A stretch of DNA of 64,000 nucleotides from a virus: the IMG/VR virus record IMGVR_UViG_3300020404_000180, positions 24,339 through 88,338 of that record; one strand, written 5' to 3'. The notes beneath the pieces were generated by a model. The model worked only from the letters and a program-made list of their open reading frames with translations. It was not told the origin of the DNA and made no database searches. This document shows, piece by piece, positions 3,401 through 52,920 of this stretch. Both the position numbers and the translations under genes were made by a program. Numbering within the stretch: position 1 is the first letter of the stretch; each line of letters begins with the position of its first letter.

Positions 3401-6400
3401 ATGCATACTCCCATGAAGAATCACCACGTAAGAAACTAAATGAGTTTGCAGTTCCTTTACTTGCTAATCTTTCTGGGTCAATAGTACCAGCAACAATATT
3501 TGATGCATCAATGTTAGTTGATGTTAACTGTGTCCAGTTTGCAGCGTTAGATGCTGATGTATTGATTGTTCTAGTAAGGTCAACAATTCTCTTCCTTGCA
3601 AAGTTACCAGACGTGGTAGCAGCAGTAGGAGAAGTAATAGAATATTGATTTGAGTTTAATAATGTTATAGCGTAGAAACCATCAGGTGCAGTTCCTGTTG
3701 TGAAATCAAAGAACTGTAGAGAACCGTTAGATAAACCATGTGAACTCTCAGTGAATGTAATCGTTGTGCTTCCACTCTGTGAGTAAGTTCCAGTTGCTAA
3801 GTTCGCTAGTGCTTGGTCAACAATAAAGTCAGATGCTTCAAACTTGATATTGTTAGCAATGTTGATTGCAACTCTACCTTCTATCTGTGCAGCAATAACT
3901 GCATTATTAGATGAACCACTAGGTGATGTTAATACCTGTACTGTTGGTTGTGAGTAGTAACCTTTACCAAGGTTTGTAATCTCAACTCTAGTTACAACAC
4001 CACTGGTTACTTTTGCTGTAGCAGCAGCTTGAACTCCATTACTTGTGTCGTCAGGTGCAGATATTGTAAGGTTAAAGTCTCCAGAATATCCAGAACCACC
4101 ACTACTGATAACGTAGTTAAATACAGCACCATCATTGTATGATTGTACAGTACCACGTGCAGTTGTAGAACTACCAACAACGATATCACCATTACTAAAT
4201 TGGAATGCACTGTTAGGTGCAAATGCTAAGAACTGACTCTCTAAGTCATTCTCTAAGATGTAAGAGATAGCAACACCAGCGGTTACAAATTGATGAGTAC
4301 CAGAACCTTGACTTGATAATGTTATCGCAGCACCAGAGTTAGCATTTGATGTTGTTGCAGCAAGTTTGATTGTGTTATCATCAATCTTGATAACGTAGTA
4401 AACGTTATTTGTTGCAAGACCACCGATTGAGGATGAACCCTCTGTGTATGTCAACTGGTCTCCAGTTGATGTACCGTGTCCAGTAATTGTAATTGTGTCC
4501 GCACCAGTATTGACTGATGAAGATGCTACAGAGAATGTAGTAGCAGATGTTTGTATTGCAATATCACCAGCGTTTGCGTCTTCAATCGCAAGTCTTTCTG
4601 CCTGTGATGCAACAGATGTAATATTAAATGGACGTAAGGCAGGAATCTGGTCAATGTTAATCTTACCGTTTGATGTCAACTGAACCAGTGCAGATGGAAC
4701 TGCGTTTGTTGAGAATGGTTGGTTGAGGTAAGGTCCTAAGTTGTTAGAGATATAATCTTTAACAGATGCCTGTGTAGGTAGTAAGGAGTCAGATGCGAAT
4801 GTACCACCAAGTGTATCAGCAGCAGAGAATCCTGTAATTGTAATGTCACCACCAACAATCTTGATAGATGTAAGTTCTGAGATTGCAACTGTACCAACGA
4901 AACTAATAGCACCAGTTCTGTTGAAGATAGTAACAAAATTACCAACCTTGAAGTCACCAAATTCGTTCGTACCAGATGTATAAACCTGACCGAATTGTTC
5001 TTCTGCTGCTTCAAATGCACTTCCTAATCCAACACCACCGTTCTGAGGTAATGCAGCATATGTGTTACCAGAACCAGCGTATTCCCAAGTGTGTGATGAT
5101 GAGTTACATACAGATGGTCTATGGAATTTAATACCTAAACTTACTAGATTTGATAGTGCTAAACTTCCAGCAACAAATCCAGAATCGTTAGATGACTGAT
5201 ACCTATTACCATTACTGATATTGGTAAAGTCCATTGACCTGTTGGTCTTAATCTTAGCAACAATCTGTGTGCCAGGTGAACCAGAAACCAATTCTGTTTC
5301 TAGAATTATATGCTCTACAGCAAGGTCAGATGACCTATGACCATCAATCTTGATGATGTAATCTTCAATAGGTATGTTTGTTAATGATGTACCAGATACT
5401 TGGATAACTTGTCTACCTGTTGGTGTACCATTTCCATCGACGTCTTCTGTAATAGAATCAATAACACCGACGTCAAATGTGTATGCTTCTGCTCTAAATC
5501 CTGTAGCACGTAGTGAGAAAGTACCAAAGTTAGATGCAGAGTTTGTAACAGATGCATAACCACCAGACTGTACTAAGATACCATCTTGACAGAAGATAGC
5601 AAACACAGAAACCAACTGTGTGTAACCATCATTACTGATGTTGTACGCAGTACCACCAAAACATATAATGGTGAATGCGTTTGCAACCATTGACTTACCT
5701 TGTGGGTCAAACTGTGCAACAGTAGCACCCTGTGAGTTTTGTTTTAAACCAGCTCTAGGTACGTTTGGTGTAGCAACCTTAGCACCATCAATCTCACAAC
5801 CAGAACCACCAAGGAATGATATAAGTGAAGAGTTCTGAATGTATGGAGATGCTTCAATGATTGGAAGGTCTAAGTGTACATTTCCTAATGGGAACGAATA
5901 TGATGATTGATCCTGTTCAGTAATTACTGGGTCAGGATTTGTAATTGCACCACTGTATGCTGTAGCACTTGATAATACGTTATCTAATATACCCCAGTTT
6001 GTAGTCAATGCAGATACAACATTAGCACACTCAGGTGCAGATGAATCTACAGTAATAGAACCATTGGATGTAATTGGTATTTGTGAGAACTGACCAGTCT
6101 CTAAATTATTTCTTATTGCGTCTATTGATAGTTCTTTTGCTGCAGCGAACATTGCACGACTATACTGTACCTCGTTGTCTAGGTATTGTATTGCACCACT
6201 AGAGATATAGAGGTTTGCTGCCTCAACAATTGCTGAGTTTCCACCGTAACGTAAGTCGAACTGGAACGCACGACAAATCTTCATTACGTCATCAATACAC
6301 TGTTGGTCGCCAGGTGCAGCAGTTCGTGTAACAGATGATACACTACCAGCAGTAGAACCGCTTCCTAACGCTGTTGTAACGGTGTTGAAGAAGGTTGTAA

Positions 6401-24300: not shown

Positions 24301-27300
24301 ATAAGTGAAGACGTTAAATGGGTTAACGTTCTCTACTGCTGATGCATATGGTTGGTCAATAAGAACCTCTGATGTGTAAGGCAGTGTTATGATGTCATCT
24401 GTCTGTTGTACATTCTGTGACGCTGTACTATATGATAGAGGGACTTGTGTTGTGTAGTGTGCTGGTCTTAAATAACCTTCTTCAAAATCTGTAGATACTC
24501 TGTAATCAGGATGTAATGTATCTGCAGTAGCAAGACTTGCAAAGTTATCAACTATAAAACCATTTTTGAATCTGCTAAGACCACTAGTGTCTCTAATCTC
24601 CATGCTTGCTGTCTCGCCTTCAAGCAATGATAGTTGTGTATAGTATTCTAATGTCTTAATTCTATCTTCTAGATATTGGATATCACGGAAGGTATATCTC
24701 TTGTAATTTGTCTCCTCAATACTGACATCTTGTTCTACATCAAAAACGTATGCATTATATGTCAAGGTAGCAAGTAGCATTGCATCCTCAATATCTTCTG
24801 GAGCTTGAGGTCTAGTAGATGGAGCACCCTTTACTATTTGTATAACGCTATCTCTACTCATAAAGATTTTATCAATACGAGGTAGGTAGTATTGTAGACT
24901 AAGAATAGTGCTATCACCAAGACCAGGCAATCCAGTTTCGTTTCCTGTAAATGCTCTGTTGTTAAAATCAAAATACTTAGTTCCACTAAGTGTAAATGGT
25001 GATGCTTGAGAACCAGAACCTGTCAATGACTCAGGAACTATTGGTCTATAGTCAATTACATCTCTAAGTTCTACGTTAGTGTAAGATGGTATAATTTTAT
25101 ACTCTGATGTAGGGTATGAGTCTACTGTATAAGGACTTGTACCATTAGTTGTAAGGAATCTATCGAAGATAACAATTATCTTATGTGTAGGAGGAGCGAA
25201 TCCTGCTTTTCTTACAATTCTAGAATAATCATAGAACTGGTCTCTCTGACCATCATCTAAATCAAATGAACTTGTTATATCTGTAGAACCTTTTGTAATA
25301 CCACCAGTAGAAATCTTTAATGTTGCATTAGGTGCAGTGATTGTCTCACCTTCTGTAAACTGGTCATCTTCTATGGGTACGAAATACACATAGTTACTTG
25401 TAGTAGAAACTATCCTTGCTCTAGAACCAGAACTGTCACCTGTGATGACGTCATCTATTGCTAGAGTTCCAAGTAAGTTTGTGTATTGGAAATTAGGAAT
25501 GATTGGGTCATTGCTATCCTTAGACTCATAGATTGCCTTAATTTTAAATACATCACCAGTTCCTAGTGAGATAGAAGTGTCATCTACTCTAGTACCAAAA
25601 CCACCAGCAACAGTAGTTAAACCATTTACAGCACTACCTGTAGTGTCATCTATTTTAAGAACCTTCATGCGTTCTGTGGTCTTTGCTTTTGCTGACCTAT
25701 CAGATGAGTAGACTGTACCAATAATTGTTATGGTGTCAGAACCACCTGTATTAGAAAGTCCTGTTAGTGCAATGGTCTGTGTATTTGCACTTGTACCACT
25801 TATACTAAAACCATTACCAGATGATAGTACATCTCCATCTCCAGAACCAGATGTAATGATAACTTGGAAGTCATCGTTATCTGCACCGTTCTTCCATAGT
25901 AATCCAGCACCAGCATTTGCAGATGCTTCACCACTACCATTAACAGTTGTGTTTACACTGATTCTAAAGAATCCTGCAGGATTCTGTGTGTTGTTATTAT
26001 TTGTATTCTTAACAGCATTGAAACCAAGAGGAGTTATTAATCTCTTCTTGTTTGCTTCTTTGAGTTCTGGACGTGTTCTAATAACAGGACTTGTAAGTGC
26101 ACCGTTAGCAATGTTGTTTGATGTTAGAGATGCAATTGTAAAACTAAAGTTATTAGTTACTGCAGTAATCGTTGCTTTGTGTACTAAGTCATTGTTTGAG
26201 AATTCTATGATGTCTCCTATTCTCAATTGAGACGCAAAGTTAGACAACGTAGATGTGATTGTTCCTGTAGCACTTGTACCAGTTCCTGATACACCACTAA
26301 GAATAGGACCTGAGCCAGGCAATGCTACCTTAACATCTAATACAGCATCTGCTGTACCACCAGTTCCAAATGCATATGATTTTACATCACCGAAACCATA
26401 TTTTCTTACACCACCCGAAGCCACCGTAGCAAATGTACTACCGCTTGCATTGTTTGTTTTTAGAACCTCTCCTGCAACAAACTCTCCATTGGTTTCGTAG
26501 AGATATCCAGTAGTACCACTACCGCTTACAACAAAACCTACAGCACCAGATGTTGCACCGAATAGTAAGTTACCCGCTGTCCATGTGACACTTCCTGTTG
26601 TAACAATTTTTACATAGAATTGTGTATCTATGATATTGGTACGATATAATGTAGTCTGATTATTAAGTGCACCAGATTCGTAAGTAAAGTTGATTGCTCT
26701 TGTCACACCAATAACATTACCAGCAGCAACGCCAGGTGTAGATGTCAATGTATCTCTAAGTTCAACTGTCTCATACATCGTAGGTGCTTGATGCTGATTA
26801 GTTGTAAATATAAAGTTACCAAAGTCTGATGTTAGAGACTGATTTGATTGTGTATCAAATGTACGTGGTTTGTCTACGTCTGTATAAGTTGTAGATAATC
26901 TTTCAGTTCTATATCCTTGAACGTAAGCACAACCAGATGATAGTTGTACAGACATGTTCTCCTCTGATGGAGCAACACCACTTGATGTTAATTCTGTAGA
27001 TGCATAGACACCGTTATTGAATCCGTCGTCTAAGTTTTCTCTAGCATCAACTTTAAATTTCTTGACGTAGTAGTTACCAGATTCTTCTTTTGTTCTGGTT
27101 GCAAGTATATCATTAATAAAACTAAGGTCACTACGTTCAACCCTCTTCTCAATATTACCAATGTTAGTTCTAAGAAGTTCTATAAAGTCAGCAGAGTTAG
27201 GTGCTGTTAATATCTTCTTGACTAATGTAAGATTAATCTTAAACCTGTCTGCACCTGGTGCAGAGAAGTTTGTACTACCGATTGCGTTATCATATAGAGT

Positions 27301-46792: not shown

Positions 46793-46972
46793 CTATATGG
46801 AAGTACCCTCTATACAAGGGGGTGTATAATAAGTACCTAGTTCAGCTGAGTCGTACTTGTAGAAAAGTTGATAATAGAGGTCGTTCATTAAACCGAATTC
46901 AAACGAAGTCGTAGCGTGGTCGTCTGTTTCCCCGTGATAGCACTTTAGGATTTCTTCGTAATTAATGGTCAT
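46793..46972 (-). CDS. Early hypothetical protein (start MTINYEE)
   Basis: Internal ATG overlapping the end of the upstream ORF. Confidence 0.55.
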   Translation of the reverse strand: MTINYEEILKCYHGETDDHATTSFEFGLMNDLYYQLFYKYDSAELGTYYTPPCIEGTSI

Positions 46973-47189
46973 AGAATAAAGGGTGATTAGTTTCAAAGGG
47001 TTCGGGTTCGTAAGAAGTCGAGGCGTCAATGTTTTGTTTTAGGTTTGGGTCGTAAAGTCTAATTGACAGTTCGGCATCATCTGCAGTGCCTACCCAACCT
47101 TTGCGGTCTAGAGCATCGTCTATGATGTTCCAGACCTTGTGAACTTCTTCATCATTTAAGAATGAGCAGATGTTCCAGTATTTGTCCAT
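46962..47189 (-). CDS. Early hypothetical protein (start MDKYWN)
   Basis: GGAGG Shine-Dalgarno upstream and a TAATG stop/start overlap with the upstream ORF. Confidence 0.65.
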   Translation of the reverse strand: MDKYWNICSFLNDEEVHKVWNIIDDALDRKGWVGTADDAELSIRLYDPNLKQNIDASTSYEPEPFETNHPLFYDH

Positions 47190-47371
47190 TAGCGAACCTC
47201 CATCCACTTGAACTCAGACTTAGTACCGCATTTGAAGATTGTAGCGGGTTCGCCTTCGTTGCTTGCAATATACTGAGCAAGGGATTTAGCATCTGCGAAA
47301 GTTGCTGTGTAGTCTGCCCAACTTCTAAGGTCGTTGCCCCATGATGTTGGTTGTACTGCCCATGTAGTCAT
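47189..47371 (-). CDS. Early hypothetical protein (start MTTWAVQP)
   Basis: TATAAT at 47400-05 and an AGGA RBS make the internal ATG at 47371 the likely start. Confidence 0.65.
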   Translation of the reverse strand: MTTWAVQPTSWGNDLRSWADYTATFADAKSLAQYIASNEGEPATIFKCGTKSEFKWMEVR

Positions 47372-47466
47372 GTTGTTTTGTCCTGTGTGGTATATACTTA
47401 TTATAACGTCATCTATGACGTTTATAAGTCTTTGTTTGTAGATTGAAATAGTTTGTAACATAACGA

Positions 47467-47634
47467 TTAATGTCTGTCTGAGATGTTCCAGTGTCCGTGC
47501 AATGTTGGTAGCGGTTCAAAGTTGCGTGCTTCCATGTCTGCTAGGACTGCTTGAACTATAGGGTCATTCGCTGCTGCCTCGTTCATTAGTACACGTCCGT
47601 TGCAGTAGGGTTTGAGTTCGTTTGTTTGTTTCAT
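47467..47634 (-). CDS. Early hypothetical protein (55 aa, probably leaderless)
   Basis: Not in the ORF track: MKQTNELKPYCNGRVLMNEAAANDPIVQAVLADMEARNFEPLPTLHGHWNISDRH. The ATG is 6 nt downstream of TATAAT (47641-46). Confidence 0.65.
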   Translation of the reverse strand: MKQTNELKPYCNGRVLMNEAAANDPIVQAVLADMEARNFEPLPTLHGHWNISDRH

Positions 47635-47676
47635 ACCTTTATTATAATACGTATCGCATGTATGTGTAGTTACCTT

Positions 47677-47698
47677 GTGCCAGTTTATAAACTGTCTA
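47677..47698. promoter_or_regulatory. 22-bp early-promoter palindrome between divergent promoters
   Basis: gtgccagtttataaactgtcta. TATAAT lies 30 nt away on - (47641-46) and CATAAT 30 nt away on + (47729-34). Confidence 0.75.
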
Positions 47699-47755
47699 GC
47701 ACTGGTTAAATTGCGTCCCAGTATATGTCATAATGACTATAGAGTTAATCAGGTT

Positions 47756-48055
47756 ATGCAATCACACAGTATTACCGTTGGTCTAAACATCGGCACTGAA
47801 GGCAAAGTTACCCGCCAAATGTGGGACGACTTCGTTATTAACACGGTTGCATCTCATCTAGATTACTGCACTATAACCGACTGCGTAGGCATTTACCAAG
47901 GTACCGTAGAGCAATCAAAATGCCTCACTGTCCTTACTGACGATGCAGCGGTTATTAAGTCACTTCTTAAAGTGGGCGATATCTACAAGAAAGCATTCCG
48001 TCAGGATGCTATAATGTATAACGTTACCGCTGTCCCCTCTCTCTCTTTTCTCTAA
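47756..48055 (+). CDS. DUF3574-like / phage SAM-lyase-like protein
   Basis: Start MQSHSIT after the CATAAT promoter. W.DFV...V...T..D..GxY.G..E.S...YKK.F.QDAI pattern. Confidence 0.55.
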   Translation: MQSHSITVGLNIGTEGKVTRQMWDDFVINTVASHLDYCTITDCVGIYQGTVEQSKCLTVLTDDAAVIKSLLKVGDIYKKAFRQDAIMYNVTAVPSLSFL

Positions 48056-48218
48056 ACCATGGAATACGCCCGCAGCATCTGGAAAGCAATTTATGCATTT
48101 GCTCTCACTATCCTTTATTTTTTTGACGCATGAAAGTTGTAATCACACCAGCACATATAACAATGCAGCTGCCCCGTGCATCGCGTCCCGTATACAACAG
48201 GGACGGATTTCCATATGG

Positions 48219-48277
48219 TAGACGGTTGGGAAAGTGTCACAACAAAACCCCACTACCTACAGTAGCGAGGTTATAAT
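48219..48277 (+). promoter_or_regulatory. Early promoter: palindrome plus TATAAT
   Basis: tagacggttgggaaagtgtcac (48219-40), 31 nt, TATAAT (48272-77). Confidence 0.7.
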
Positions 48278-48302
48278 AGGTACATACCACACAGGAGCAT
48301 TT

Positions 48303-48632
48303 ATGCGAATCGTTGAAGAAAACATGAACACAGCAATCCGTTACAGACGTAACTGGGCATCATCGAACACTATGGTGAGATGCTTCAAAGAGGTTGTAGA
48401 AGTTTACCTCCACGGAAACCACATTGCATCAGTTGACACAGCGACCAACAACCTAACCTTATTTGATGGTGGTTGGCAGAGTGTAACAACTAAGTCACGC
48501 TTGAACGCTCTACTAACAGAATTCACCCATGGCGGTTTGTCTGTTGTACAGAGGAACTTCGACTGGTTTATTAGAGACAATGACTTCACCAATAAACCAC
48601 TTGTTCCCTTCGTCTCAGGTATGCAAGTGTGA
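48303..48632 (+). CDS. Early hypothetical protein (start MRIVEENM)
   Basis: AGGAG RBS before the ATG at 48303. VYLHGNHIA...DGGWQS.TTKSRLNALL...Q.NF.WF motif. Confidence 0.75.
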   Translation: MRIVEENMNTAIRYRRNWASSNTMVRCFKEVVEVYLHGNHIASVDTATNNLTLFDGGWQSVTTKSRLNALLTEFTHGGLSVVQRNFDWFIRDNDFTNKPLVPFVSGMQV

Positions 48633-48690
48633 ACACACACTTGTATCATATGTACTAGCACTATCCAAACCTATTCTGTATAATAAAGGC

Positions 48691-48879
48691 ATGACTACTA
48701 AACAAAACCCAGAGTGGATTCGCACTCTTAACATTACTGAAGCAGAGGAAGCAGTCCTTGTTTCAATCGCTCGTTACTTCGTTGACATGGGATTACCAGA
48801 CGACATTGACGAATCAGATTTTGACACTCTAGTTGAGAAAATTTGCGAACCATCACCTTTTGACTATGCCACAAACTAA
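48691..48879 (+). CDS. Early hypothetical protein (leaderless, MTTKQNPEW)
   Basis: ATG is 6 nt after TATAAT (48679-84). Confidence 0.65.
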   Translation: MTTKQNPEWIRTLNITEAEEAVLVSIARYFVDMGLPDDIDESDFDTLVEKICEPSPFDYATN

Positions 48880-49129
48880 CGACTATTACAACAGCGTTCT
48901 ATTCGGGATGAGTTTCCGAATAGACGACCAAGGTTTACTCCTAGCATGTCCCACCTTTAAGGACGGGCAACCAGACATAGACAACGAGGGTGCTGTTTAC
49001 GACTGGGAGAACTGGGACGAGTTAAACCATCATCACCACGTTGCTCTCATGGGTGTTATTCAGTATTGCATACTGGCACGCGACACCCGCAGGGTGGACT
49101 ACTACGCGAGGGTATTCAATGGACGCTAA
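48866..49129 (+). CDS. Early hypothetical protein (MPQTNDYY)
   Basis: Internal ATG overlapping the previous ORF. Confidence 0.6.
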   Translation: MPQTNDYYNSVLFGMSFRIDDQGLLLACPTFKDGQPDIDNEGAVYDWENWDELNHHHHVALMGVIQYCILARDTRRVDYYARVFNGR

Positions 49130-49373
49130 GTTATTACTAGAACTTAAAGAGTTCTTGACAGAGAGAATGGTGGACAACATGTCCACCCAAGACCTAGTAG
49201 AGTATGTGTCAGATGACCTCTTTAAGTACTTTGACAAACTAGGTGAACATGAATTCTTACAAGAAGCAAAGAACTACTGGGACGACTCATTTGACGAGGT
49301 TGTAGAAGAGGTTAAAGACTATATGAAGTGCGACTTCAAACGAGAACCAGGTAATACAGTTCGTCACCCATAG
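49119..49373 (+). CDS. Early acidic helical hypothetical protein (MDAKLLLEL)
   Basis: GAGG RBS. ERMVDNMST.DLVEYV.DDL motif. Confidence 0.65.
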   Translation: MDAKLLLELKEFLTERMVDNMSTQDLVEYVSDDLFKYFDKLGEHEFLQEAKNYWDDSFDEVVEEVKDYMKCDFKREPGNTVRHP

Positions 49374-49374
49374 T

Positions 49375-49417
49375 TGTAAAAAATGATACAGCAGGTCAGC
49401 TTGACTTGCTGTATAAT
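49375..49417 (+). promoter_or_regulatory. Canonical NtcA-activated promoter (TGTA-N8-TACA, 22 nt, TATAAT)
   Basis: tgtaaaaaatgataca at 49375-90 and TATAAT at 49412-17. Matches GTA-N8-TAC-N22-TAN3T exactly. Confidence 0.7.
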
Positions 49418-49585
49418 AGAAGTATAGAGAGTTGGGTCGCTCGTTAAATCTTCGACACCCAAGCAGCTGAATTTTCTCGGTGAACATACTGGTGTTACAA
49501 TTGATACCATGTATCATATGTACATACACAAGGGGTTGCATATCGTTTATAATAAACACATGAACAAAACAAATCCTTTAACCTT

Positions 49586-50083
49586 ATGCCTAATCATTGC
49601 TACAATCGTGTTACATTCTACAGCGACGACACTACCGCAATTCTAAAGTTACATAAGATTTTTAATGGTGACACTGACACCCAAACAGTATTTGAGAACT
49701 TCATACCCGAACCAAACTGGGCGGAGATTCCCTTAACAGAAAACACACTTAAAGAGCATGGTTTTTCATCACCAAGAGGTGAAGTGGGTGAACTACCCGA
49801 ACTGATAGACCATGAAATCATGGGCAAATGTTTACGCTTCAAATCTACAGATGCACAAGATGATCGCTGGTATAACTGGCGAGTCCAAAACTGGGGCACT
49901 AAGTGGGATGCCTATGACCTAAGCATAGAAGAAGACGATATGCCCTATGGTTTCCAAGTCACCTTTAACACTGCGTGGTCACCTCCAGAGGAGATTTGCC
50001 ACGCTATCAGAGACCAATTTGATGACCTTAGCGTCTCATGGTTCTATGACGAACCAGGTTGTGAAGTTGCAGGGTATCTATAA
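49586..50083 (+). CDS. DUF1281/YubB ferredoxin-like family protein
   Basis: MPNHC.N...WYNWR..NWGTKWD...F.TAWSPP...YDEPG. Confidence 0.8.
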   Translation: MPNHCYNRVTFYSDDTTAILKLHKIFNGDTDTQTVFENFIPEPNWAEIPLTENTLKEHGFSSPRGEVGELPELIDHEIMGKCLRFKSTDAQDDRWYNWRVQNWGTKWDAYDLSIEEDDMPYGFQVTFNTAWSPPEEICHAIRDQFDDLSVSWFYDEPGCEVAGYL

Positions 50084-50092
50084 ATGCTCAGT

Positions 50093-50151
50093 GTGCCAAT
50101 TAAAGAACTGCCACACCCTATGCAGTTCTTTGCCTTCCTATCCTCTATAAT
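50093..50151 (+). promoter_or_regulatory. Early promoter: palindrome plus TATAAT
   Basis: gtgccaattaaagaactgccac (50093-114), 31 nt, TATAAT (50146-51). Confidence 0.7.
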
Positions 50152-50172
50152 ATACGTATACAAACAAACATC

Positions 50173-50448
50173 ATGACTATGCCAGCAATCGCAATCCAAA
50201 AGAACCTCCCACTAGAAAGAGACTATAACGGGTGGTTTAACTGGTCAACATGGAACGCTGCTCTCTGGATTAACAACGATCAGGGCATGCAAGAAATGTT
50301 TCAAGATTTCGACACATACAAAGATTTCGTATACTTCATGGTTAACGAGATGAACTGTAAAGCGACCCCAGATGGGGCGTTATGGTCTGACGCTGACGAG
50401 TCTGAAATGCAAGAGATGCTTGATGAATTAAAAGACGGGGACTACTAA
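50173..50448 (+). CDS. Early hypothetical protein
   Basis: YNGW.NW.TWNAALWINND...TPDG..W.D motif common in phage early genes. Confidence 0.75.
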   Translation: MTMPAIAIQKNLPLERDYNGWFNWSTWNAALWINNDQGMQEMFQDFDTYKDFVYFMVNEMNCKATPDGALWSDADESEMQEMLDELKDGDY

Positions 50449-50542
50449 GTCCCTGTTACATTTTATACATTGTATAATATGTACATAGACCTACCTATCC
50501 AAATCCTTTATAATAAGGATAACAAACAAACACATTTACATT

Positions 50543-50692
50543 ATGAGTTGTCTAGCAAACGAATCAATCCTAGAATCATTATTTGAAGAATGCCTAGCAA
50601 AACTAGAAGAAGCAGGGCATGACATTAACAGCACAAATGCTCAAGCGGTTGCCGCGATAAGAGCACAGCAAATCTTCGAGGAGATGGGTTAA
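50543..50692 (+). CDS. Early hypothetical protein (49 aa)
   Basis: Not in the ORF track: MSCLANESILESLFEECLAKLEEAGHDINSTNAQAVAAIRAQQIFEEMG. Follows TATAAT (50509-14) and has a TAATG overlap with the next ORF. Confidence 0.65.
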   Translation: MSCLANESILESLFEECLAKLEEAGHDINSTNAQAVAAIRAQQIFEEMG

Positions 50693-50928
50693 TGATACAA
50701 GAGTTCATCGATTACGTCTGTTCGTTCTATCTACCAACAGACCCTGAGGTCCTCTACCCTATCCAAGGGTTAAAACGTTCACACGTTCAGAGAGCGACAG
50801 AGGACTACTTAACCCTATGCCTTGATGAGTCCTTAACTAATATCACATGGGGCAACGGGGACTCTCTCGACAGAGAAAGAGTCCGTGACATTCTTTTAAA
50901 TCAGTACAATTTCACATCAGGTTGGTAA
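50692..50928 (+). CDS. Early hypothetical protein with a GDSLD motif
   Basis: FIDYV.SFY...LYP...GDSLDRERVRD. GGAG RBS. Confidence 0.7.
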   Translation: MIQEFIDYVCSFYLPTDPEVLYPIQGLKRSHVQRATEDYLTLCLDESLTNITWGNGDSLDRERVRDILLNQYNFTSGW

Positions 50929-50930
50929 TT

Positions 50931-51095
50931 ATGCGAACAACACCCAAAGAAAAAACCATTATAAAACTCATGGAAATGGTCATCGATACGCTCTCTACGT
51001 GTGATGACCTTTCTGACCCTGCCTTTAGCATGTATTACACTATGAAAGATGCTGTATTGCATGAGGTCATATACCCTATGGAGAAAAATCTATAA
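50931..51095 (+). CDS. Early hypothetical protein (54 aa)
   Basis: Not in the ORF track: MRTTPKEKTIIKLMEMVIDTL...PMEKNL. Fills the gap in the operon. Confidence 0.5.
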   Translation: MRTTPKEKTIIKLMEMVIDTLSTCDDLSDPAFSMYYTMKDAVLHEVIYPMEKNL

Positions 51096-51229
51096 TGGAA
51101 GAATCATTATGGGAACATGCCACGGACAAGGCACATGAGATGATGAAACATCGAACAGACCTAGACCCAGAGACGTTTGACTATCAGATTCTATACTGGA
51201 CTAAAAAAATCTTTCAACAATTATCATGA
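51095..51229 (+). CDS. Early hypothetical protein (44 aa)
   Basis: Not in the ORF track: MEESLWEHATDKAHEMM...FQQLS. TAATG and ATGA couplings on the two sides. Confidence 0.55.
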   Translation: MEESLWEHATDKAHEMMKHRTDLDPETFDYQILYWTKKIFQQLS

Positions 51230-51459
51230 ACACAATTAAACTAACAGACGTCGAACTAGTTGCCCTAGCGGTTCTATTCGAGGGACAAAACGAAATCAGT
51301 TGCGAATCACGTGCCAACGACGATGCATACCCTAACGGTAGACCACAGAGTCCAGAGGAAATAATCCTCGACAAGATAAGTGCAAAGGTTTCTACCCTAC
51401 TATGGAACCCTAAAAACAAAATTAATGTAGGTAAAATCTTAACTCAACTACGCAAATGA
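51226..51459 (+). CDS. Early hypothetical protein
   Basis: ATGA-coupled at both ends. Confidence 0.65.
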   Translation: MNTIKLTDVELVALAVLFEGQNEISCESRANDDAYPNGRPQSPEEIILDKISAKVSTLLWNPKNKINVGKILTQLRK

Positions 51460-51677
51460 ATTACAACTCAGCTGACTCAATTGGTATCGGTGACCACGTG
51501 ACCTACAAGGGGACGGAATACTGTGTGTTAATTAACTATGTCAAGGGTGACACAGACCGCACAGGGTATACATCTCCAGATAACTGGACAGTATTAATTG
51601 ACGATGACGGGAACCGTACCACGTGCTATGACTATAGACAGTTAGTGCCAGTACACAAACTGGTACAAGACATTTAA
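51456..51677 (+). CDS. Early hypothetical protein (SH3-like beta pattern)
   Basis: IGIGDHVTYKG..Y.V. The 3' end runs into the palindrome at 51645. Confidence 0.6.
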   Translation: MNYNSADSIGIGDHVTYKGTEYCVLINYVKGDTDRTGYTSPDNWTVLIDDDGNRTTCYDYRQLVPVHKLVQDI

Positions 51678-51702
51678 AAAACCTCTCAGGCGTTGCTATA
51701 AT
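51645..51702 (+). promoter_or_regulatory. Early promoter: palindrome plus TATAAT
   Basis: gtgccagtacacaaactggtac (51645-66), 30 nt, TATAAT (51697-702). Confidence 0.7.
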
Positions 51703-51797
51703 AAGAATAACAATCGAGAGAGGTTCGGGGTAGGACTGATGACGATAAACATTCGTCACCAACCCTGCCAGATATTTTTAACAGTGTCAGTGCGACC

Positions 51798-51980
51798 CTA
51801 TTCTACAGGGTCAGGCACATAGTAACAGAGACCTTCCAAAATATAGTAGTCACATAACTTCCGATACTTAGGGTATCGACTCAGTGTCTCAGTGTCTAGT
51901 AGTCCCTGTGCGAGGTCAATAGATGACTGCCAAGTACCAGTAGTCTCATATGAGTCTACTAAGGACTCTATACTACTCAT
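51798..51980 (-). CDS. Hypothetical protein (start MSSIESL)
   Basis: GGAGG RBS upstream of the internal ATG. Confidence 0.6.
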   Translation of the reverse strand: MSSIESLVDSYETTGTWQSSIDLAQGLLDTETLSRYPKYRKLCDYYILEGLCYYVPDPVE

Positions 51981-52143
51981 GTAAATCCTCCATAATGGTG
52001 TGATCATAGTGTATACGATTTTTATTAGATAAGTGATCTAAGTAACCAGAACTGTATAAATCGTCAAATTCTGCCAGTTCTTTCTTTTTTTGTGAAAATG
52101 AACCTTTTTTGGTGTTACCTCTGTAATCCCAACTTTTACCCAT
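51973..52143 (-). CDS. Hypothetical protein (56 aa)
   Basis: Not in the ORF track: MGKSWDYRGNTKKGSFSQKKKELAEFDDLY...EDLHE. Fills the gap in the operon. Confidence 0.55.
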   Translation of the reverse strand: MGKSWDYRGNTKKGSFSQKKKELAEFDDLYSSGYLDHLSNKNRIHYDHTIMEDLHE

Positions 52144-52158
52144 TTTTCTGCTCTTTTG

Positions 52159-52413
52159 CTAGACTTCTGTGATTTGTACTAAATCTCCACTTTTTAACGA
52201 ATTGTTATAAAAACGTCCAAGTGAGAGACTCTCAGGGTCTTTGACAAAACCTTCCAGTTTCCCTAGAAGTTTTGAGTTTGCAGGTTTCCAAGCATACTCG
52301 TAAGTTTTCTCATTTCCTGAGAAATTTATGAAAACCTTGGATCCCTGCACGATTATTTTGTCGATGGCAGAACTTAAAGTTCCTATGTCGAATGTGTGTT
52401 TCTTTGAGGGCAT
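52159..52413 (-). CDS. KTSC-like domain protein
   Basis: SSAI..I....V.I.F....Y.Y...SLGRFYN pattern. AGGAG RBS. Confidence 0.55.
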   Translation of the reverse strand: MPSKKHTFDIGTLSSAIDKIIVQGSKVFINFSGNEKTYEYAWKPANSKLLGKLEGFVKDPESLSLGRFYNNSLKSGDLVQITEV

Positions 52414-52436
52414 GTGATTTGTTCTCCTTACACTTA

Positions 52437-52494
52437 ATTATAAGGGATTTTGCCAAAAAGGTCAAGATATGGTGGACACTAAACAAACTGTCAC
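52437..52494 (-). promoter_or_regulatory. Early promoter: palindrome plus TTGACC-N17-TATAAT
   Basis: Palindrome at 52473-94, -35 at 52460-65, -10 at 52437-42. Confidence 0.8.
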
Positions 52495-52920
52495 AGTCCT
52501 CCTTGACATCTCGTAGTCCGTCCGCTAAGACCCACTGACTCCAACTAGATTGACCGCCCAGATATATTTTTTAAAACATTTCCAAAATACTATGAAAATG
52601 ACTATACATTCTCCCATATTACCTTGACACGTTGCGGAGATGTACGATATAATAGGAAATATGTGGGTATTTGGTATAAAATGATACAAAAATACCCTGC
52701 GGAATCTCTGCGTCCACTCCATACAGACTCAGAGCAGCATCTACTTAGAGTCTATAGAGATTCTTTGAGGTCTTGGCAAGTGGATAGAAAAAAATCCGCT
52801 GCGTCTGCGATATCCTCTGAGGATTGAGTGAATTCATTACAAAATTCATAGACTTTACTGTCTAATGAGATACCTCTATGAGATATTGAAAGAAGGCATT
52901 CTCTCCTCCTGTCTAACATA

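Follow-up and report, generated by a model that had tools for sequence, protein, structure and literature searches.

The canonical class II promoter of the cyanobacterial nitrogen regulator NtcA is laid out as a GTA-N8-TAC dyad followed, after 22 nt, by a -10 element of the form TAN3T without a -35 element. The same layout recurs in NtcA-activated small RNA genes of cyanobacteria, such as NsiR4 of Synechocystis, in which a class II NtcA box and a -10 element precede a short non-coding transcript. To our knowledge, marine cyanophages have so far yielded few non-coding RNAs, and we know of no test, since 2010, of the NtcA sites that have been predicted in these phages. A cyanophage early-promoter element is reportedly described in the work of Doron and colleagues from 2016 on the Syn9 transcriptome.

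Promoters of the NtcA type have been predicted in every sequenced T4-like cyanophage, at 1–16 per genome, with the proposal that they couple phage gene expression to NtcA and 2-oxoglutarate of the host (Sullivan et al., 2010, PMC3037559). A second kind of described element, the PeSL, combines a promoter with a stem-loop in one cassette and is located where T4-like genomes have their indels (Arbiol et al., 2010, PMC2839356; Comeau et al., 2014, PMC4122927). On the host side, the yfr2 genes carry a 22-nt palindromic motif that starts 55–57 nt before the transcription start; this palindrome, CGRE1, is bound by PMM1637/PlmA, with induction by N starvation and high light, and the part of that source cited here places NsiR4 outside Prochlorococcus (Lambrecht et al., 2018, PMC6191309).

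The locus described here lies in a stretch of 64,000 nt (hereinafter the window; positions 24,339 to 88,338 of the IMG/VR record IMGVR_UViG_3300020404_000180) and shares traits with each of these systems. Its promoter, P1, together with the conserved non-coding block that follows, resembles the NsiR4 gene in layout (class II NtcA box, -10, non-coding stretch), but the block has no sequence or Rfam relation to NsiR4, lacks a terminator hairpin, and is borne by a phage. Like the intergenic GTA-N8-TAC sites predicted in Prochlorococcus and Synechococcus myoviruses, the P1 box is a predicted site; however, those sites, in the part of the study drawn on here, front protein genes, whereas the P1 box fronts the conserved non-coding block (Sullivan et al., 2010, PMC3037559). 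Cyanophage sites of the NtcA type, PeSL cassettes, and small RNAs driven by promoters all belong to known kinds of element. The block has no counterpart among curated RNA families, and a literature search found no description of this 40-nt block or of an NtcA-driven cyanophage small RNA. What appears to be new is the exchange of promoter type ahead of one conserved non-coding element. The locus is a modest, testable finding and not a surprising one.

Genomic setting of the intergenic region

The region 48800–50300 matches only the T4-like Prochlorococcus myoviruses MED4-213, P-HM1, and P-HM2 (genus Eurybiavirus), at 71–73% identity, and the parent IMG/VR record comprises 88 kb with an estimated completeness of 49%. 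The window is the early region of an uncultured T4-like Prochlorococcus myovirus near MED4-213 and P-HM1, with the locus in an early stretch of small genes. The features of the intergenic region and of the two genes bounding it, all on the plus strand, are as follows:

49119–49373, +: upstream early gene of 84 aa (cluster 371 in the P-HM1 annotation; DUF7326; phrog_1352), with its stop codon at 49371–73
49375–49390, +: TGTA-N8-TACA dyad (NtcA-type box), centered at about -41.5 if the start is 49424
49386–49414, +: 13-bp stem-loop found by folding, with its loop at 49399–401; candidate terminator, or hairpin at the 3' end, of the upstream gene in the manner of a PeSL
49412–49417, +: -10 box TATAAT of P1, without a -35, read in the sequence
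49424–49427, +: putative region of the P1 transcript start, placed by spacing 7–9 nt past the -10
49428–49467, +: conserved non-coding block of 40 nt with four polymorphic sites across relatives, from the alignment of relatives
49432–49462, +: previously proposed hairpin (ttgggt..cg / cg..acccaa), which can be drawn and is neither stable nor covarying
49472–49475, +: T-tract whose spacing is shared by 22 of the 23 distinct copies, without a stable stem directly ahead, from the alignment and terminator prediction
49510–49553, +: P2, the promoter belonging to the next gene (box TGTA-N7-TAC, then 24 nt and TATAAT at 49548–53)
49586–50083, +: downstream early gene of 165 aa (cluster 484; DUF1281_C-like; phrog_20518)

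The order of genes around the block differs among its carriers, viz., 371-block-484 in the window, 484-371-block-66 in MED4-213, and 484-block-66 in three further loci (L019, L034, L035). Immediately 5' of the block, a gene of cluster 371 is found in 32 of 42 contexts, one of cluster 484 in three, and others in two; the slot 3' of the block is occupied by a different gene in most relatives, namely cluster 66 (phrog_1987; at least 28 contexts), versus cluster 484 in the window. Since the flanking genes vary among the carriers in this fashion, the block and its promoter behave as a unit.

An NtcA-type geometry overlapping a strong spacer hairpin

The first-pass annotation had described P1 as a perfect NtcA promoter that appears to drive a non-coding hairpin RNA, and every coordinate that it gave for the promoter holds on rereading: TGTA at 49375–78 is followed after 8 nt by TACA at 49387–90, and a distance of 22 nt (49390–49411) leads to TATAAT at 49412–17, with the GTA-N8-TAC core (49376–89) flanked by T and A. 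P1 thus has both the dyad and the 22-nt distance to a TAN3T -10 of a class II NtcA promoter. It shows no -35 element: the hexamer at the 17-nt spacing is CAGCAG, and P1 is missing from the sigma-70-like site prediction. The surroundings of the promoter also stand as first described, in that no ORF follows P1 other than unconserved frames of 27 and 45 aa, a T-rich patch (TTTT, 49472–75) lies past the proposed hairpin, and the gene at 49586 has a promoter of its own with TATAAT at 49548–53. The near-repeat reported around the promoter is present in the window (TTCGTCACCCA at 49360–70 and TTCGACACCCA at 49451–61) but is absent from MED4-213 and P-HM1, which have other gene-end codons.

In terms of chance expectation, the GTA-N8-TAC word occurs 51 times in the window versus 29.4 expected, TGTA-N8-TACA 11 times versus 4.4 expected, and the full GTA-N8-TAC-N22-TAN3T pattern four times versus 1.44 expected, a count reached by 4 of 100 shuffles. 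Ten of the 11 TGTA-N8-TACA words are repeated coding words inside giant structural ORFs, and the window-wide excess of such 'NtcA boxes' is therefore explained by repeated coding sequence; the box at 49375 is the sole intergenic one. The giant structural genes that hold the ten words (e.g., at 6327, 31535, and 37802) span 444–42127 on the minus strand, and several of these words are one and the same repeated word.

The spacer of P1 is filled by a hairpin (49386–49414) with a folding energy of -18.4 kcal/mol and a z-score of -5.98, equalled by none of 200 shuffles. Its 5' arm holds the TAC half-site and its 3' arm enters the first three bases of the -10, such that T49387-A-C49389 pairs with G49411-T-A49413. 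As a consequence, the hairpin and the -10 by themselves are enough to account for the right half-site and for its 22-nt distance. An analogous spacer hairpin is found in MED4-213 (z = -4.21). Among the relatives, three pairs of the spacer hairpin are changed on both sides, as is also seen in 74 of 500 shuffles of an alignment of 25 rows, five of which have non-homologous spacers, and the covariation of this hairpin is suggestive only.

In joining an early promoter to a strong stem-loop, a candidate terminator of upstream transcription, and in recurring as units across the hyperplastic early region at points where the gene order of relatives breaks, the cassette is similar to the PeSLs (Arbiol et al., 2010, PMC2839356; Comeau et al., 2014, PMC4122927). 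However, the PeSL promoters of those accounts are sigma-70 type -35/N17/-10 pairs, whereas P1 has no -35 and an upstream dyad in its stead; furthermore, the window cassette has its stem-loop within the promoter spacer and an extra conserved 40-nt block. The best reading of the intergenic region appears to be that of a composite early promoter-terminator cassette of a PeSL-like kind.

A 40-nt non-coding block that is exact or absent

In MED4-213 and P-HM1, the 64–79 nt after the homologous 84-aa gene align to 49397–49475 with 83.5–87.5% identity, and the genes flanking the block in these phages fall below this at 70–76%; at the homologous locus of P-HM2, the block is not found. A scan of metagenomes with a 21-base pattern from the 5' half of the block recovered 37 stretches; the flanks are those of phages in 36, and one (L041) is a chance match with unrelated flanks. 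The metagenome loci, viral contigs, and window together furnish 47 pattern matches; the 46 genuine ones collapse to 21 distinct 52-mers or 23 distinct 63-mers. Because the 5' half is fixed by the search pattern, a second scan was anchored on the 3' half, and all seven loci that it returned have an identical 5' half. Block identity to the window is 37–41 of 41 positions in 24 of 26 contigs, with the adjacent gene at 57–86% nucleotide identity; the two exceptions are the divergent L054 and a copy truncated where its contig ends. The block is placed 10–12 nt past a TATAAT or TATACT in all 46 genuine copies, and a run of four to six T starts 4–5 nt past the block in 22 of the 23 distinct copies.

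Only 6 of 79 viral loci anchored on gene 66 carry the block, and nhmmer found no diverged copies in these loci at E<=10; here, the block is either exact or absent. Searching one genome per prokaryote species with the 21-base pattern gave no genuine bacterial or archaeal copy, and a host origin of the block was rejected, as the sole prokaryote match, in a Lachnospiraceae MAG, has unrelated flanks. The high identity of the block with its sharp borders could result from recombination and not from selection. Position 49427, immediately ahead of the block, and position 49443, the 16th of the block, lie 16 nt apart and are not Watson-Crick partners; they are perfectly coupled across 27 distinct sequences (alignment columns 5 and 21; A-G in 16, C-T in 10, and G-G in one), with the markers on either side shuffled.

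A contig with two block copies has blocks that are identical at 40 of 41 positions, promoters at 58 of 70, and downstream parts at 69 of 96. In the 7-kb metagenome contig L026 (reverse strand, 3600–5700), two promoter-block-promoter cassettes lie 1.4 kb apart, each preceding a diverged copy of gene cluster 66, and this pair reflects either a true duplication or an assembly chimera. Many metagenome contigs (L018, L025, L038, L039, L042, L050) start or stop within a few dozen bases of the block, as expected of assemblies that break at the joins between a single shared sequence and divergent flanks.

Structure, family, and possible transcription of the block

The hairpin that the first-pass annotation drew from the block (49432–49462) did not survive folding and alignment. 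The corresponding sequence folds no better than shuffled sequence (z = +0.48 for 49420–49500 and -0.73 for 49424–78), and the homologous stretches in three homologues have z-scores of -0.25, +0.73, and -1.48. Although 96.7% of the cells of the proposed helix are paired, none of its pairs is changed on both sides, giving zero compensatory pairs, and the one variable partner forms G-U in 17 sequences, G-C in two, and is unpaired in four. RNAalifold on the block alignment yields just a 4-pair stem of -2.9 kcal/mol and does not predict the proposed hairpin, which was rejected as a functional feature on account of its unremarkable fold and lack of compensatory pairs. Rfam returned no match at the gathering score for the window and 15 related loci; at E<=10, nothing covered the block within 49300–49650, where three chance-level matches fall elsewhere.

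At the T-tract of the block, no stable stem of the kind that directly precedes the U-tract of an intrinsic terminator was found, so a discrete short RNA is not assured, and read-through from P1 into the gene at 49586 is equally possible. As in a trans-acting small RNA gene, an own promoter is combined with sequence conservation that carries no coding signal. Antisense complementarity to the block within the 88 kb of the phage itself stays near expectation, with three complementary 11-mers versus 1.9 expected and no 12-mer. Parts of 47600–52700 occur in five marine metatranscriptome runs from two studies; the contigs of four of these runs cover several early genes in a patchy fashion, with no piece on 49394–49493. 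This speaks neither for nor against expression, and an RNA of 55 nt is not expected in such libraries.

Two promoter types ahead of one block

The promoters preceding the block fall into two variants. The more common one, variant B (25 distinct copies, including MED4-213 and P-HM1), has a 22-bp palindrome 30–31 nt upstream of the -10, with a spacer hairpin of the form CCAGCTG..CAGCTGG, usually then followed by TTTTG, in between. Variant A, represented by six distinct sequences (the window, L006, the L007 group, L028, L029, and L033), has TTGTA-N8-TACAGC, another spacer hairpin, and a -10, and in this form (box, 22 nt, and -10) is found ahead of the block in additional contigs as well as in three phage records. 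The GTA..TAC half-sites are retained in five of the six variant-A promoters, L029 having GTT; among the six sequences, these half-sites are no better conserved than the spacer. The palindrome-type promoter serves as the general early promoter across the window, and the palindrome is not found at P1 itself. As most relatives drive the block from this palindrome early promoter, the NtcA-like box is a lineage-specific promoter swap.

Variant B, in which some 30 nt separate the 22-bp palindrome from the -10, is comparable in layout to the host yfr2 promoters as presented in the cited part of Lambrecht et al., 2018 (PMC6191309). P1 differs from the yfr2 promoters in having no palindrome, and the block, having no Rfam match, is not Yfr2. 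The replacement of the palindrome by the TGTA-N8-TACA box may have put the block under host NtcA in the lineage of the window.

A proposed transcribed element and its competing explanations

The sequences show the geometry of the motif, the conservation of the block, its lack of coding constraint and of structural support, and the promoter swap; from there we infer a transcription start at P1, an RNA-level function of the block, and possible binding by NtcA. We would give an even chance to the combined reading that the cassette with the block specifies a short early non-coding RNA or leader acting by its sequence, from a promoter that may be NtcA-responsive. Under this proposal, the strong hairpin at 49386–49414 would close the upstream gene, and the promoter overlapping that hairpin, without a -35, with its -10 at 49412–17 and an NtcA-type dyad at the class II position, would initiate transcription at about 49424, to run through the block (49428–67) and the T-tract, beyond which lies the next gene's independent promoter. 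The block would be the working part, either as a short RNA ending near the T-tract or as the 5' module of a longer leader of the next gene, and would act via its sequence, through base pairing or protein binding, and not via the proposed hairpin. Most relatives have the standard cyanophage early promoter ahead of the block, with the palindrome exchanged for the TGTA-N8-TACA box in the window lineage. Of the original description of an NtcA promoter driving a non-coding RNA, the class II geometry, here in a promoter without a -35, and its aim at a non-coding stretch, which proves to be under strong sequence constraint, are supported, whereas its hairpin is unsupported and its NtcA component weakened.

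NtcA control of P1 is plausible but weakened, and actual binding of NtcA to the predicted box is a tentative assignment that falls somewhat short of an even chance. The main competitor on this point, which we regard as a minority view of substantial weight, is that the box is not an NtcA site and belongs to the lineage's own TGTA-N7/8-TACA early-promoter class, with another reader or none; the match to the NtcA consensus would then come from a 1-nt spacer variant together with the need of the hairpin for ATAC opposite GTAT, as embodied in the pairing of the TAC half-site described above. The pattern TGTA-N7/8-TAC-N21-24-TATAAT indeed occurs five times in the 88-kb record, four times with the 7-nt spacer, versus none in the genomes of MED4-213, P-HM1, and P-HM2 and none for the reversed-pattern controls. 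With a looser -10, 16 TGTA..TACA sites are present in four related records, eight with N7 and eight with N8, the controls again giving zero. The orthologous P2 boxes alternate between N7 and N8, one spacer base apart, and both GTATAATATGTAC and GTATAATATGATAC are found at orthologous promoters. Against this class-based account, the N8 spacing with 22 nt recurs ahead of the block in all three phage records that have the box, as well as in L028 and L033; a second N8 promoter with 22 nt but without such a hairpin is present in G002; and the geometry is that of the canonical NtcA class II layout, with the consensus as given in the part of PMC3037559 cited here. The class as a whole, with its dyad 21–24 nt before TATAAT, is lineage-specific and can be traced over 46803–50515 of the window, where N7 boxes lie at 48642, 49510, and 50471, and in G001–G003.

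The remaining rivals concern the block and not the box. It is unlikely, though by no means negligible, that the block acts as DNA without a functional RNA, either as an operator or as the junction of a PeSL-like mobile cassette, i.e., a patch recombined among co-infecting phages. The shuffling of gene order exactly at the block, the many metagenome contigs breaking in or beside it, and its exact-or-absent distribution over the gene-66 loci are in line with such a role, as is the position of PeSL cassettes at the indel points of T4-like genomes in the accounts cited here (PMC4122927, PMC2839356). However, the block is single-copy in most genomes, unlike the PeSL repeats; the flanking promoter parts should recombine along with it, yet are far more variable; and its fixed distance of 10–12 nt after the -10, seen with either type of promoter, suggests that the element is transcribed. 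Transcripts also serve replication in T4, where the origins oriF and oriG use a promoter transcript as primer or R-loop RNA. By analogy, the P1 transcript might prime a replication origin, in which the block would be unwound or would form the hybrid, and the co-occurrence of a promoter, a short conserved non-coding stretch, and an A/T-rich tract as a single copy in the early region would suit such a role; nevertheless, absence of the block from the close relative P-HM2 and from 73 of the 79 gene-66 loci is odd for an origin, and we regard this explanation as very improbable. The least credible alternative is a 12-residue micro-peptide encoded by the sole possible frame through the block, from TTG at 49432 to TGA at 49468–70. 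In this frame, two of the four polymorphic sites fall on third positions and are synonymous, but the other 10 of its 12 third positions are invariant next to a gene that is 57–86% identical, the TTG start has no ribosome site, and, depending on the copy, the frame is 12 or 15 codons long or stays open into the next promoter. With only two variable third positions and differing frame ends, the constraint on the block is not coding, and the micro-peptide was rejected.

A broader version of the reading as a transcribed element, which we deem improbable, would make the block the core of an undescribed family of phage regulatory RNAs in the myoviruses of high-light Prochlorococcus, with its promoter exchanged between two host readers of carbon and nitrogen status: most of the phages would use a palindrome of the PlmA/PMM1637 type, which drives the host small RNA Yfr2, and the window lineage the NtcA box. 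If this were true, one phage RNA effector would be tuned to different host nutrient signals. With one ultra-conserved non-coding block and two host-type promoters in related phages, the locus is a compact case for testing, and two of the carriers of the block, P-HM1 and MED4-213, are cultured on Prochlorococcus MED4. Should the block prove to be an RNA effector, it would show a coupling of early infection to host nutrient state in ocean viruses; otherwise, the locus remains an example of promoter swapping and of PeSL-like promoter-terminator cassettes in the early regions of cyanophages.

Other non-coding elements in the same slot and in the window

The intergenic slot upstream of gene cluster 66 holds other conserved non-coding inserts in several relatives (L001 2285–2390, L009, L011, L076, L080). 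One of these is a shared word of about 40 nt that is also present in the MED4-213 spacer, and another, of about 90 nt, is found in L009, L011, and L076; a long 5' leader containing the stem GGGAAACAAAA..TTTTGTTTCTC is present in L073, L080, and L082. None of these inserts and leaders has an Rfam match at the gathering score. In phages of the P-HM2 type, the slot of the block is taken by a different element between tandem early promoters (L003 2336–2384, which is P-HM2, and L085 1065–1113), comprising a 9-bp hairpin (z = -1.52 and -2.48) and end words that resemble the ends of the block.

Elsewhere in the window (51645–51790), a full palindrome-type early promoter with TATAAT at 51697 aims into a gap bounded on its far side by a convergent gene. 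The RNA predicted from it (51709–88) would form a two-tier hairpin followed by TTTTT (z = -2.84). An exact 23-mer from this stretch is not found in the viral contigs, only the promoter part matches P-SSM2, and the stretch has 14 of 18 bases in common with the center of the conserved block.
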